Source of the DNA: Candidatus Hermodarchaeota archaeon
Lineage (GTDB): Archaea > Asgardarchaeota > Hermodarchaeia > Hermodarchaeales > Hermodarchaeaceae
Assembly (NCBI GenBank): GCA_016839805.1
Contig: JAEOTO010000032.1
Location: 32,001-96,000 of the forward strand
Length of the DNA stretch: 64,000 nucleotides
Reading direction: 5' to 3'
The notes below the pieces were generated by a model, which worked only from the letters and a program-made list of their open reading frames with translations, made no database searches and was not told the origin of the DNA. A program made the position numbers and the translations under genes. This document shows positions 2,718 through 37,711 of the stretch, one piece after another; within the stretch, counting starts at the first letter, position 1; each line of letters starts with the position of its first letter.

Positions 2718-3116
2718 ATGGTTCGACAGCGTAAAAACACTAATAGAACTCAGGAAATATTCGAAGAGCGTTTCAAAAAAGGAGTTAAGCTCTTATTAGA
2801 GCTTTCTAGTAAGGGTGTGCCCATTGCCGTGGAGGGAATTAAAGATATTACTGCTCTTCGTAGGATGGGATTAACTGGGCCCATACATACCCTAACGGGT
2901 CATAGCATCGTGAGTCTAGCTGATGAGCTTGCGGATTCAAATCAGCTTTTGATTTTATTTGACTTTGATCGCCGCGGAGAACAACTTTCTAGGCAATTAA
3001 CACACCAATTACAAGGTCGAGGCGTACATTTGTTATTGAAGGAACGGAGTCAGTTACGACGTGCTTTCTGTTGGTATTCTCGAGTTATTGAAGGACTAAG
3101 ATTCCCCGTGAAATAG
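2718..3116 (+). CDS. Small TOPRIM-domain protein
   Basis: IAVEGIKDITAL and ILFDFDRRGE TOPRIM motifs. Confidence 0.8.
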   Translation: MVRQRKNTNRTQEIFEERFKKGVKLLLELSSKGVPIAVEGIKDITALRRMGLTGPIHTLTGHSIVSLADELADSNQLLILFDFDRRGEQLSRQLTHQLQGRGVHLLLKERSQLRRAFCWYSRVIEGLRFPVK

Positions 3117-3282
3117 TTCGAAAGGCGGAAAGTTTTAATGTGTTTCATTCAAGTGGCTATTTGCATCACGCTTACAAAGTTGCATTATCTAATCAAAAAC
3201 AATCAGAAAAAATAACGGCGCACTCACAATCACGCGCCGCCACTAAAAAAAATTACAATTCACTAATCACTAGGTGACGATT

Positions 3283-4594
3283 ATGGTAGCAAATGCAGAA
3301 ACCACTGGTACCACTAAATATTGTATTCGTGGGAAAATTGAAATTGATGGAGTAGTAGAAACCCCGGATGTTGTAGGCGCCCTCTTTGGCCAAACTGAGG
3401 GCCTACACTTCATATCATTGATTTGAAGGGGCAATCGGCGAAGATTTGGACCTCAGAGAATTGCAACAATCGGGACGAATTGGTCGAATAAAAGTTGAGC
3501 TGCACTCGGAAAGTGGCAAATCAAAAGGTACTATTACCATTCCATGCAGTCTTGATCGAACGGAAACTGCAATCCTTGCAGCAGCCATTGAAACGGTGGA
3601 CCGCGTGGGTCCCTGTGCTGCTAAGATTACACTAGAAAAGGTAGAAGACGTTCGAGAAGAAAAACGTAAACGCATTATTGACCGTGCTGTAGAACTATTA
3701 CGCGACTGGGAGGGAGAAATCTCCCCAGATTCGCAGGAAATGACCGACACTGTAGTTAGCGAATCCCGTACAGCCGATATAACGAAAATTGGTAAAGATA
3801 GGCTTCCGGCAGGCCCTGATACGCAAAAATCTGATACCATCATTATTGTCGAAGGACGTGCTGACGTACTCGCACTACTTAGAGCTGGTATTAGAAATGC
3901 TGTTGCAGTTGAAGGTACCTCGATTCCAAAATCATTACGCGAAATTATTAACTCAAAAACGGTAATTGCCTTCCTTGACGGAGATCGAGGAGGCGATCTG
4001 ATTCTCAAAGAATTATCTCAAGTCTCGAATGTAGATTTTGTTGCAAGGGCACCTCATGGTAGAGAAGTAGAAGAGCTTACACATAAAGAAATTACCAAGG
4101 CGCTTCGCCATAAGGTTCCTGCTGAACAACTAACTGGGAAACCAAGGAGAAGGAAACCTACAACGACCCCGAGGACAAAACAGCAGATACGTCGGACCAA
4201 ACCACAGAAGACCAAAGAACCGCCTCGGAAGACAAAAACCACTACTACAAAAAGGACTTCACGAGCTAAAGCGATTGAAAAAGCGAAAGTAGAACCAAAG
4301 GAGTTGGGCATTCCAAAACCAGTTCTTGATTCTGCCGAGAAGATACAACAGACTATGATGGCTGTTATTTTTGATGATAATTTCAAACAACTTCAAGAAC
4401 CGCATGTTGGAGAACTAGCAAACGAGTTACAGAAGCTTGACAAAGCAAATACGCTTCTTCTAGATGGCGTGGTTACTCAGCGTCTCATTGATATTGCAGA
4501 GGAACGAGGGGTTAGGTTGATTATTGGTGTTCGTATTGGTAATATTGTCAAGAAGCCTGCAAAAATGCGAATTCATACATTTGATGAGTTATAA
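3283..4594 (+). CDS. dnaG: Archaeal DnaG (exosome-associated, primase-like), split by a 28-nt intron: exons 3283-3406 and 3435-4594, 427 aa
   Basis: GGTGA Shine-Dalgarno and ATG at 3283. [31 protein letters not shown]|[19 protein letters not shown] is restored on splicing. [14 protein letters not shown] and FLDGDRGG. Confidence 0.93.
3407..3434 (+). other. Bulge-helix-bulge intron in dnaG pre-mRNA
   Basis: Central helix GCCT(3401-04)/GGGC(3429-32), bulges AC^A and AA^T, intron stem CTTCA/TGAAG. The unspliced form has a stop codon and a frameshift. Confidence 0.88.
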
Positions 4595-4683
4595 CATGCC
4601 ATCATCCTGTCAAGTCAGCAAGGCTTAAATATCGAGCACTCTCAGGTTCGCCTCGACCCTATCAATACAGTGAGTGTGTTTTC

Positions 4684-9711: not shown

Positions 9712-9820
9712 GGGCCGATGGTCTAGCTATCTACTGGGATACTCCCCCGGTGGACTAGAAGGTTATGATATCGCGCTTACACCGCGATGGTCGGGGGTTC
9801 GAATCCCTCTCGGCCCACCA
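9712..9820 (+). tRNA. tRNA-Val(TAC) with a 32-nt BHB intron at 17/18 (9729-9760), encoded CCA
   Basis: GGGCCGA/TCGGCCC acceptor stem, TAC at 9778-80, GGTTCGAATCC. BHB with CTAG/CTAG central helix. Confidence 0.92.
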
Positions 9821-9931: not shown

Positions 9932-10017
9932 GCCGGGGTATCCTAGCCTGGTAGGGAGCAGGCCTGCTAAGTCTGTGTCCATGGGACTCACGGGTTCGAA
10001 TCCCGTCCCCGGCGCCA
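9932..10017 (+). tRNA. tRNA-Ser(GCT), long variable arm, encoded CCA
   Basis: GCCGGGG/CCCCGGC acceptor stem, anticodon GCT at 9966-68, GGTTCGAATCC. Confidence 0.95.
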
Positions 10018-10586: not shown

Positions 10587-10932
10587 GGACGGTGAGCCTA
10601 GGCGGGGGGCTAGAAGCCCCGCAGCGCCGCTACGGGCTGGCTAAGGCTCCCCTGTACCGCAGATGCTCTATACGGCGGGCTGAATGCCGACACTAGGCTT
10701 TCTGACCTGTTGTACGACTTGCTGTTCGTGGCAGTGACGATCCGCCTCGGAGGATCGCTGGTGGCGGTAGGCTTTTCGTAGGAAGGGCTGAATCGCCTTT
10801 ATCAGGTAAACCCAGCGAGACCCGGGAGGGAGCAGCGTAAGCCTGTACTGTAGATGCTTCCGAGATCCGGGTCCGAGACCTGGCGGTGAGTACGGCATCA
10901 GTGAGGGTTGACGACCGTCGGGGCTCCCGTCC
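10587..10932 (+). ncRNA. ffs: Archaeal SRP (7S) RNA
   Basis: Terminal helix GGACGGtGAGCC/GGCTCCCGTCC, Alu-like CTAGGCGGGGGG...CCCCTGTA, helix 6 with GTAG tetraloop, helix 8 CCC-GGGA-GGGAGCAG, followed by a T tract. Confidence 0.92.
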
Positions 10933-24247: not shown

Positions 24248-24275
24248 AGAGTAATCCTCACGCTAACCAACTTAT

Positions 24276-27200
24276 TTAATCAAGAGTAAGTTGTGTTTGA
24301 CGTGTGGTTTGGCGCTGCGTTGCCTTTAATGCTTGTTCATCTTCGGGTTTGATAGCTCCACCGCATTGTTGTTTAATTGATTTGGCGATTTGAGCTCCAA
24401 TGGTTGGAATCGCTGCAAGTTGTGCGATGGGTGCATCTCGAATTCGATTCTGCGATATGAAGCCAGCTCGGAATAAGAATCGTGCGCGAACCCGACCGAT
24501 ACCTTGGAGCTCAACTAATTCAGTTAATTCACGTCTCACCCCGTATCTTAACCGTAGCTCAAGCTCTTCTAACTCCGGAATTACTTCTTTGTGATTAAAA
24601 ATTGGGGCTAGTTCACGACACGCATATAGGATCCAAGCTTGTGTATCTACTAGTCGAAGTAGGTCCCCCGAGCCGATTTTGAATTGGTTAATGAGTTGAT
24701 CTTCAGGGAGCTCTTCAACCCAAGCCTTTGCTAGAAGAGCCGTTTTCACTTCGGCAAGAAAGAATTCATAACGATCTCGGTGGTAACGCGGATCAGGAAC
24801 CGAGATTAAAAATTCGTCGATGTGTTCAATGACATAATCATGAAATCGCTCATCTTCTCCACGGCGGAGATAGAGGTTGGCCATATCAGGTGTGTGACAG
24901 ATTAAGTGTAAAAAGGAGACGTCTGTGGTTTGGTCCATGTTGTTTGAAGCTTTGGCAAGCCCATCGCGAATGATCACTGCAGACTTGGGATCGATGTACA
25001 ATTGTGAGGTTCGTCGACCAAAGGAAGTTGCGAATAATCGTTTATTTCGCTGTTCTAACAAAGCTTCATCCTTAAGGAATTTAACAATCAAGTCAATCAT
25101 GTATTCGACTTCGTCAGGGTCCCGTTGGTGACCGAAGAAGGTTTGTCGAATGAAGTTCATGATGCCTTCCTTATCAGAGGCATAATTCATTGCAATCGTT
25201 GAAAGGACATGACTGCGAAGTGCAGATTCGCTTGCAAGTTTGGAAGTTATACTCTCAGGATTTCCAAGGATGTAGTAATCGAGAAGAAAATCCCGTTCTC
25301 CTTCGTTCCGAGCCAAAAGAATTGCAGTGCCCTTTTTGTCGTATTTTGGTCGACCCGCGCGTCCAGCCATTTGTTTGTATTCTAAAACTGGAATGGGTTG
25401 GTAGCCTTCTATTCGGTCAAACCGTCGATATTCTTGGATAATTACCACACGCGCTGGAAGATTAACACCTGCCGAATTATGAACGATGAATCCGTTAGCT
25501 ACAAACATATGATCGTGGTTATTTGAAGGGGGCAGAACAACGTCAAATACTGTTGAAGCCGCGTTGACTGTTTTTATTTCTCGAATCTTATCCCAAAAAA
25601 TGTCGTTATCCAGATCTTTTGATCGCCAGTTTCCTCTCAGTGTTCTTTCTAATTCAGTCTGGCATAAAGGGCAATGACTCTTTCGATAAAAATTCGATAG
25701 GTCTTGATTCTTTACTAAATAGTTTGAATATATCCATTTTCCAATTTCATTGAGGCTCCAAAACCATTCCGTTTTGCTTCGTTTCCCAATCTTACGCCTG
25801 GAAATTAACTCATAATGATGGTTTAATCTAGTCTCAGGTTTCCTTGGTTTGAAGCTTAAGGCACTTTCAATCTCATTTGATCCTAATTCCCCTTTTTCAC
25901 CAAGAAGTTTAATTACCGCATACTTTTTCTTTCCCCATTCTTTTTGACTCTTTGAACGACCAAAAAATAGTGATTTGAAAATTCGATAATCGCAGCTAGG
26001 ACAAGCGATGTATAAGACGTTTTTTTGTATCTTAGAAACTAGCTTTTGTAAATCAGTAGCCTTTCTTTTGATTCCAAATCCTATGTACTTTTGAAAATCT
26101 AATATCGACTGATTTTGGCTAATTAGTAACTCAAAACTCGGTTTTGTTGCATACTCTTTTTGCGCATATCTCATTATTCCCTTTTTTCGCGACCTAAGCC
26201 GAGACACAATTCCAAAGCGCAGAAGTAATTTCTTTGATTGCATTATTAGTTCTTTTGAGGAATTGCCTAACCCAATTTCCTTTTCCTTTACGACGTACCC
26301 ATCAGTATCATAAAGACCACGCAGAAGAGCTGCGATGGATGAATTATCTGTTTTCATTAGTTTTGGATGGATGTATTTCTTATTTCCTTTCTCAACTCCA
26401 CAACGGACTAAAAATTCCCTAAACCACTTATTCTTCCCTAAAACTAGCTCCGGAATTCCATAGGTATTAATTCCTCTTCGAGTAGAGATAGAGAAGGCAT
26501 CACAGGTTTGCTTAACATGAGCAAGAATTTCATCACCTAACCCAACAATAGAAGGCGCGCCCTTGTACCTGATTACGCCCCCATCGCTTTCAGCCCCCGA
26601 ATGACCATCTCCTAACATTAAACCCAAAAAATATGAAAGGTCTAGAGTTATTTCGTAATCTTGCTTGGCAGTTTTATTATCAATCACAAAATCTCTCACA
26701 TAGCATGTGAAATGTTTTTGAAGTGACACCCTTCTCGCTGTGGCTAGTTTATCGTGTTTCTTAATCTCTTTAGCTGGAATAATTAATCGTTTGTTATCTC
26801 TTTTTACTAACATACGATGATTTTGAGTGATTTGTATATGATATCCTGATACAGATGAGACCTCAATGAGTGATTCAGAATTTTCCAAACTAACAATATC
26901 AGTCGCTTTTCCTGGAACAAGCCTGTTTTTTGATAGGACGTAGAGTTGATCTGTGTTTTTGAATTCCGTTACTTTAGTTTCTTCAAGTTCATGCCAAATT
27001 TCGGTGTTGGGACCTAAACAAAGGGTCGGAGTGGCGCATACTACTTTAATTAGATTGTTTCGAAATGCTTCTTCGATGAGTTTGCGTTCTGAATAACGTA
27101 ATCCAGCATGATGAAACGCTACTCCAGCCCGAATATTTCGGGCGAGGGCCTCAGATACCTGGGTGACTTCCCCTAAATGAAGCAGGTTTTCAGCGAGATC

Positions 27201-37507: not shown

Positions 37508-37711
37508 CTACCTTCGAGCAGCTTTGGGTTGTCCAGCAGGAGTACCTCTTAGGATACGTTTCGCATAATTTCGACGATTGCGTAGCCGAGGAATCGGAGT
37601 AACACGAACCTTGCCCTTTACTTTGGGCGTCTGACTCCGAACCTTACCAGCTTTTTTACTCGACTAAAAGGACATCTTCTAGCCCGTAAGCGAGCCGTGA
37701 GATCCGGGCAT
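37508..37711 (-). CDS. rps30e: 30S ribosomal protein S30e, split by a 30-nt intron: exons 37711-37686 and 37655-37508, 57 aa
   Basis: Spliced product MPGSHGSLT|KAGKVRSQTPKVKGK...RNRRNYAKR. Absent from the ORF track because the intron carries in-frame TAG stops. Confidence 0.92.
37656..37685 (-). other. Bulge-helix-bulge(-like) intron in rps30e pre-mRNA
   Basis: Minus strand: GCTT-AC^G-GGCTAGAAG-ATGTC-CTTTTAGTC-GAGT-AA^A, a 4-bp central helix and 9-bp intron stem. Confidence 0.88.

Follow-up and report, generated by a model that had tools for sequence, protein, structure and literature searches.

A probable bulge-helix-bulge intron in the coding sequence of dnaG of a Hermodarchaeota archaeon, with comparable inserts at three more sites in dnaG of other Asgard families

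In the literature searched, introns of the endonuclease type have been described in only two archaeal messenger RNAs, in the coding sequence of cbf5 (PMC2738675) and in the leader of HVO_1309 (PMC7714728). The intron of the cbf5 pre-mRNA is known in Crenarchaeota (Aeropyrum, Sulfolobales and Desulfurococcales), and its splicing was shown experimentally (PMC2738675). In HVO_1309 of Haloferax volcanii, a bulge-helix-bulge (BHB) intron is situated in the 5' untranslated region of the mRNA, and cbf5 was stated in 2020 to be the sole other case in an mRNA (PMC7714728). The tRNA genes of Asgard archaea are heavily interrupted by introns, and the preprint that describes them makes no mention of mRNA or of dnaG (bioRxiv 10.64898/2026.10.13.758758). 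No paper combining DnaG with an endonuclease-type intron was found in the literature searched.

In the window (the whole 64,000-nt stretch of Hermodarchaeota DNA that was analysed) the dnaG gene occupies positions 3283-4594 of the forward strand. It is split by 28 nt (3407-3434) holding an in-frame TGA. The frame that opens at ATG 3283 is translated as MVANAE...FGQTEGL, runs on into HFISLI and stops at TGA 3424-3426. The downstream frame is open from 3437 to the TAA at 4592-4594 and encodes the remainder of DnaG with its Toprim domain. Residues 12-41 of exon 1 match positions 1-30 of the DnaG profile NF003108 of NCBIfam, and the second frame, from its first residue, matches positions 32-419. 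The two pieces thus belong to one gene, with exactly one codon absent between them. Exon 2 alone scores 455 bits against this profile (E 2.3e-136), above the curated cut-off of 300, and carries Toprim domains (Toprim_4, E 3.7e-13). No second dnaG was found in the genome, which holds a single dnaG match. The features of the locus, all on the forward strand, are the following:

3272-3285 (+): ribosome-binding-like GGTGA and start codon ATG 3283; all 18 family members keep TAGGTGA(C/T)GA before the start codon, which is ATG or, in the second genus, TTG.
3283-3406 (+): dnaG exon 1, consisting of 41 codons and the first base (C3406) of the junction codon; matches the profile; mean pN/pS 0.16.
3401-3404 (+): 5' strand of the central helix, GCCU, within exon 1; its partner in both the minimum-energy fold and the consensus fold is 3429-3432; every cell is paired across the 16 distinct sequences, G-C alternating with G-U and C-G with U-G.
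3405-3407 (+): 5' bulge, ACA, with the predicted cut at 3406/3407; unpaired in the fold and invariant in 18 sequences; a cut after its second base restores the frame.
3407-3434 (+): predicted 28-nt intron; absent at exactly these bounds from intron-free relatives and from contig L067.
3408-3428 (+): intron hairpin, with a stem of 3408-3416 paired to 3420-3428 and a loop at 3417-3419; three of the nine stem pairs change on both sides, and the loop has 12 sequences in 18 genomes.
3424-3426 (+): TGA that closes the exon 1 frame if the intron stays; by translation, unspliced RNA would yield a 47-residue peptide.
3429-3432 (+): 3' strand of the central helix, GGGC, within the intron; present in the folds; its last base is C or U, either of which pairs with G3401.
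3433-3435 (+): 3' bulge, AAU, with the predicted cut at 3434/3435; the second base is A or U and the third base, in exon 2, is invariant.
3435-4594 (+): dnaG exon 2, consisting of TC completing the Leu codon, then 385 codons and TAA 4592-4594; matches DnaG profile positions 32-419; pN/pS 0.09.

Excision of 3407-3434 joins C3406 to T3435-C3436, giving CTC (Leu) and the predicted joint GGC CTA C^TC GGC GAA, where the caret, here and below, marks the point of cutting or joining. The predicted spliced DnaG has 427 residues and reads TEGLLGEDLDL across the joint, the predicted peptide letters spanning it being TEGLLGEDLDLR, and the predicted Leu fills the single absent profile position. The original prediction had read the frame from ATG 3283 as the DnaG N-terminus, interrupted by TGA 3424 and resumed in another frame, and this is confirmed by translation and by NF003108. 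It had also placed the cuts at AC^A and AA^T, giving CTC (Leu) and the family consensus; the resulting joint matches the intron-free dnaG of other Asgard archaea as well as the missing profile position.

The minimum-energy fold of the RNA between 3385 and 3455 has an energy of -21.7 kcal/mol (z = -2.54), and 3 of 200 shuffled sequences fold equally well. In this fold, GCCU (3401-3404) pairs with GGGC (3429-3432), ACA (3405-3407) is unpaired, and the stem CUUCA/UGAAG is lengthened to nine pairs, 3408-3416 with 3420-3428. The central helix is weak: one of its pairs is G-U in this gene, and most relatives have two such pairs. On the 3' side, AA (3433-3434) lies opposite GG (3399-3400) and is followed by outer pairs, of which A3398-U3435 and G3397-C3436 are invariant among relatives. 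The 3' outer helix has only one or two pairs, and, as their bases never vary, covariation speaks neither for nor against it. The full BHB motif has a 4-bp helix flanked on either strand by a bulge of 3 nt. Of these elements, the central helix and the 5' bulge occur here in conserved form, and the 3' bulge measures 3 nt only if the single pair G3400-C3436 closes it; drawn otherwise, the 3' side is a 2x2 loop followed by two invariant pairs. The insert is accordingly modelled as a relaxed form of the BHB motif.

Cutting after the second base of each bulge is predicted to give a functional product, with C^TC as Leu and TEGLLGEDLDL restored. When the 28 inserted bases were shuffled, a 4-bp central helix together with an inner stem of at least 5 bp arose at the frame-restoring sites in 1.2e-4 of 200,000 trials, and the probability that this geometry arose there by chance is low. 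The original prediction had argued that a random indel would rarely bring cuts predicted from the fold into agreement with protein homology. The GCCT/GGGC helix, ACA bulge and CTTCA/TGAAG stem that had been predicted all recur in the minimum-energy fold at the same positions, and the caveat that the motif is relaxed was fair, given the one or two outer pairs of its 3' half. The predicted AAT bulge closed by G3400-C3436 is one of two drawings of the 3' side, the fold having AA opposite GG instead. The cut at 3434/3435 lies two bases past the central helix in both.

The insert is kept in all 18 dnaG genes found in the family, that is, in the gene described here and in those of all 17 other family genomes that hold dnaG; such an alignment of close relatives had been proposed as a check on the intron. 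It occurs in all 14 genomes of the same genus and in three of the four genomes of a second genus, the fourth being without any dnaG match. The aligned inserts measure 28 nt in the first genus, whereas those of the second have 29 or 31 nt. Among the 16 distinct sequences, 96.9% of the cells pair in the structure as named, whereas sliding the 3' partners by 1-3 columns lowers the share to 39-55%. Two counts of pairs that change on both sides gave values reached by at most 6 of 500 shuffles. The hairpin has three compensatory pairs (C-G to U-A, A-U to G-C and U-A to A-U), and its 3-nt loop drifts freely. In the central helix and in both bulges the bases are invariant or swap only between pairing alternatives, and RNAalifold independently predicts the same central helix and hairpin. 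The conservation pattern, with helices under selection while the loop and the total length drift, is that of a structured RNA.

Across the 18 genomes the values of pN/pS in exon 1 (mean) and in exon 2, listed above, indicate purifying selection on both exons, each read in its predicted frame. The public records nearest to the sequence bear the titles Hermodarchaeota, Candidatus Hermodarchaeum or Promethearchaeota, which marks the organism as an Asgard archaeon of the Hermod type. An assembly or sequencing artefact was rejected, the insert being present in 18 assemblies and the same split occurring in public contigs of several projects and sources.

The dnaG genes of several other Asgard families are uninterrupted and read FGQTEGLLGE(D/E)LDLRELQ. 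A closer counterpart without the insert is contig L067 (JGI sample 3300036486, 1524 nt), from a sister species, which encodes a DnaG of the Hermod type and has the joint GGCCTAC^TCGGTGAA exactly as predicted. Over 1466 nt, with the upstream spacer included, it shares 83% identity with contig L092 of an NCBI MAG, the nearest genome contig with DNA at hand, and at the intron site the two differ by a clean 28-nt gap corresponding to the intron. The L067 protein is identical at 285 of 286 residues to protein P0038, encoded on a 74-kb JGI contig of another sample. On that contig the gene calls comprise a 49-residue frame that ends 74 nt before a 369-residue frame, the former being +1 relative to the latter, and the geometry is the same in L092. 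Judged from these records, what appears to be a single species thus occurs in the public data in two forms, one with the 28 nt and one lacking them.

L067 would be a spliced transcript or else an allele that lacks the intron. Some features hint weakly and indirectly at RNA as its source: the contig starts about 25 nt past a promoter-like box, ends about 20 nt before a T-run and has a frameshift in an A7 homopolymer. The A7-run frameshift sits near the 3' end of dnaG. In a set of 5.8 billion proteins searched with exon 2, all matches of the Hermod type except P0055 start downstream of the intron or read through it; when exon 1 was compared with the longer proteins of this set, only P0055 joined exon 1 to exon 2, and three others were unspliced read-throughs. 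A scan of metagenome contigs for the predicted joint gave four contigs, all of them carrying distant intron-free dnaG (44-53% identity), showing that the joint sequence by itself is not diagnostic.

Several features flank the gene. A 132-residue open frame (2718-3116, forward strand) lies directly upstream of dnaG, and a small gene at the matching place in two related contigs has weak Toprim matches. The promoter-like box AAAGTTTTAATG is situated at 3129-3140 (forward strand), about 143 nt upstream of the dnaG start, and recurs as AAAACTTTAATGG in L092; it would imply a dnaG leader of roughly 120 nt. Right after the dnaG stop, at 4623-4635 (forward strand), is GCTTAAATATCGA, which is conserved in L067 and L092 and could be the promoter of a small gene or RNA that comes next.

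Inserts of the BHB kind interrupt dnaG at three other positions in other Asgard families, at loci L021, L029, L027, L057, L058, L060, L056, L072-L091 and L098-L120. These three positions lie within about 20 codons, and at each of them cutting after the second base of the bulge restores both the frame and the consensus. The four positions, with the families in which they occur and the insert lengths, are the following:

FGQ^TEG (after GGN CAA): three small families; 29-34 nt.
FGQ^TEG (after GGN CAA): one Promethearchaeia (Loki) family of 135 species; 29-43 nt.
VE^KPD: one other family, in which two genomes are split there and the junction was read in one; 37 nt, with helix GUAG/CUAC.
SDI^VGA: some Promethearchaeia; 30 or 31 nt.
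EGL^LGE: the Hermod family only, among the families inspected; 28, 29 or 31 nt.

At FGQ^TEG the Gly codon and a C form the exon strand of the central helix, and the third base of this strand covaries with the intron strand. The pairs observed are GGCC/GGCU, GGUC/GGCU, GGAC/GUCU, GGAC/GUUC, GGAC/GUUU, GGGC/GUCU, GGGC/GCCU and GGUC/GACC. In the 135-species family this region is split in 48 of 127 genomes, holds an in-frame insert with stops in 7 and is uninterrupted in 70, which puts the interrupted share of the dnaG genes found at about 43%. All three states co-occur inside single genera. No dnaG intron was found in the Heimdall-type class, where all 74 matches that span the N-terminal stretch run through without interruption; two further matches are partial. 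The presence of such introns thus differs inside genera and possibly inside one species. Whether tRNA-type introns have repeatedly landed in the first 45 or so codons of dnaG across Asgard archaea is a more tentative matter, which we regard as possible but somewhat doubtful. If it is true, BHB introns are actively gained and lost in mRNAs of the closest archaeal relatives of eukaryotes, and the output of DnaG, a subunit of the exosome and primase, could be tied to the tRNA-splicing machinery.

The genome encodes enzymes of the kind that such introns require. Two EndA paralogues score above the Pfam cut-off, and contigs 26 (78271-78525) and 22 (24271-24531) of the genome hold one each. The best PDB match of the 186-residue paralogue is 3p1z_B (E 1.7e-45), the chains matching best being those of the catalytic subunits of crenarchaeal heterotetramers, and Tyr, His and Lys, as read by eye from a sequence alignment, are in the expected pattern. 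The 198-residue paralogue is divergent and, likewise by eye, is without the His. An RtcB-type ligase is also encoded (571 bits). One catalytic and one apparently non-catalytic EndA would fit a two-subunit enzyme, and the two-subunit EndA of Crenarchaeota is reported to accept relaxed motifs, including that in cbf5 (PMC2738675). ARAGORN, run with intron search, made 84 tRNA calls in the genome, some of them probably false; 18 have introns, many of 26-33 nt. An Rfam tRNA match at 9747-9813 of the window (forward strand, 34.7 bits), not called by ARAGORN, adjoins tRNA-Ser at 9932-10017 and the SRP RNA at 10590-10929.

We infer both the cutting and joining of the dnaG RNA and the enzymes responsible. 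In the primary transcript GCCU at the end of exon 1 and GGGC at the end of the intron would pair as the 4-bp central helix, on one side of which the 9-bp intron hairpin would stack, with a 3-nt bulge on each strand. The splicing endonuclease, apparently a two-subunit alpha-beta EndA, would then cleave past the second base of each bulge, and RtcB would ligate the exons into GGC CUA C^UC GGC. Translation of the mature mRNA would give the full 427-residue DnaG, while on unspliced RNA it would stop after 47 residues.

The split frame might instead be dealt with during translation. A programmed +1 ribosomal frameshift near AUU-UGA (3421-3426), by which the insert is translated and DnaG becomes about nine residues longer, would agree with the downstream frame, which is +1 relative to exon 1, and with the stop, which comes after the hairpin. 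However, the insert has 28, 29 or 31 nt in the family, so that the shift needed changes sign between sister genera and one kind of frameshift cannot serve all of them. Furthermore, the variation of the insert tracks base pairing rather than codon positions, and translating it would break the invariant EGLLGE motif, which makes this explanation barely credible. Translational bypass, as in gene 60 of phage T4, with the ribosome hopping from GGC 3400-3402 to GGC 3437-3439, draws on the identical Gly codons that flank the region and the hairpin between them. Nevertheless, the take-off codon is not followed by a stop codon, and the conserved Leu-Leu-Gly would be missing from the product. At the other three dnaG positions, the inserts follow the BHB rule even though no take-off and landing codons match there, and the chance of bypass is close to nil.

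The insert could also be a frameshifting lesion of a broken or split gene that makes only a truncated DnaG from an internal TTG at 3446, perhaps with a separate 47-residue peptide. The public annotations seen for dnaG of the intron-bearing family would agree, as all of them call an N-terminally truncated DnaG comprising just the downstream frame (376-411 residues). This is highly improbable in view of the purifying selection on exon 1 (pN/pS 0.16), the conservation of the insert structure in 18 genomes of two genera, the replacement of the putative start TTG by TTA in 5 of 18 relatives and the single dnaG match in the genome. Frameshifting, hopping and a split or broken gene were thus all considered and rejected on insert length, motif, selection and conservation. 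It is very unlikely, too, that the insert is a true intervening sequence whose removal from the RNA depends on enzymes different from EndA and RtcB. The 3' site deviates from the strict motif, and the literature searched holds no enzyme assay of any Asgard EndA, but the cuts that restore the protein coincide with those of the endonuclease rule at four independent positions, and the two-subunit crenarchaeal enzyme is, as noted above for cbf5, reported to tolerate relaxed motifs. On the sequence evidence taken together, 3407-3434 is very probably a bulge-helix-bulge (tRNA-type) intron within the dnaG coding sequence.

The gene for ribosomal protein S30e, elsewhere in the window, is split by a 30-nt insert with two TAG stops (37656-37685, reverse strand). 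Its removal gives MPGSHGSLT^KAGKVRSQTPKV, and its fold has a GCUU/GAGU helix, the bulges ACG and AAA, and a stem of 9 bp. Judged from this modelled fold, the window seems to hold a further mRNA intron similar to that of dnaG.

The data support the dnaG intron as an endonuclease-type intron in an mRNA, and the recurrence of such introns at four dnaG positions across Asgard archaea is an added finding. The gene is a core gene of which one copy was found in the genome, and it carries a conserved tRNA-type intron. The truncation of all the public annotations indicates that gene callers systematically mispredict such genes. Clustered at four positions in a short stretch of dnaG and patchy within genera, these introns offer a tractable system for the study of intron gain and loss, and they bear on the evolution of introns of protein genes without a spliceosome.

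Among the known systems closest to the dnaG intron is that of cbf5 (PMC2738675). Both are short coding-sequence introns, often with a relaxed BHB motif, whose removal is attributed to a splicing endonuclease of hetero-oligomeric type. Their distribution among lineages is patchy in both cases, introns having been gained and lost. They differ in that cbf5 is a crenarchaeal gene whose splicing was demonstrated, whereas dnaG is an Asgard gene whose splicing is deduced, and in that a single intron position was reported for cbf5 (PMC2738675), compared with four across Asgard families for dnaG. HVO_1309 resembles dnaG in being an mRNA processed by the tRNA-splicing endonuclease, as is predicted for dnaG. 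Its intron, however, is in the untranslated leader and interrupts no reading frame, whereas the dnaG intron interrupts one. The introns of archaeal tRNAs have the same motif, cut rule and size range as the dnaG intron, but the host RNA of the latter is a messenger, with no tRNA body to aid recognition.

The unconventional splicing of the eukaryotic HAC1 and XBP1 mRNAs also has much in common with what is proposed here. A protein endonuclease cuts two sites in small stem-loops, the exons are then joined by a tRNA ligase, which in animals is RtcB, and the message is read in a changed frame. The nuclease is IRE1, and the event is regulated by stress. The splicing proposed for dnaG would work in a like manner, with the tRNA-splicing endonuclease as the nuclease instead of IRE1.
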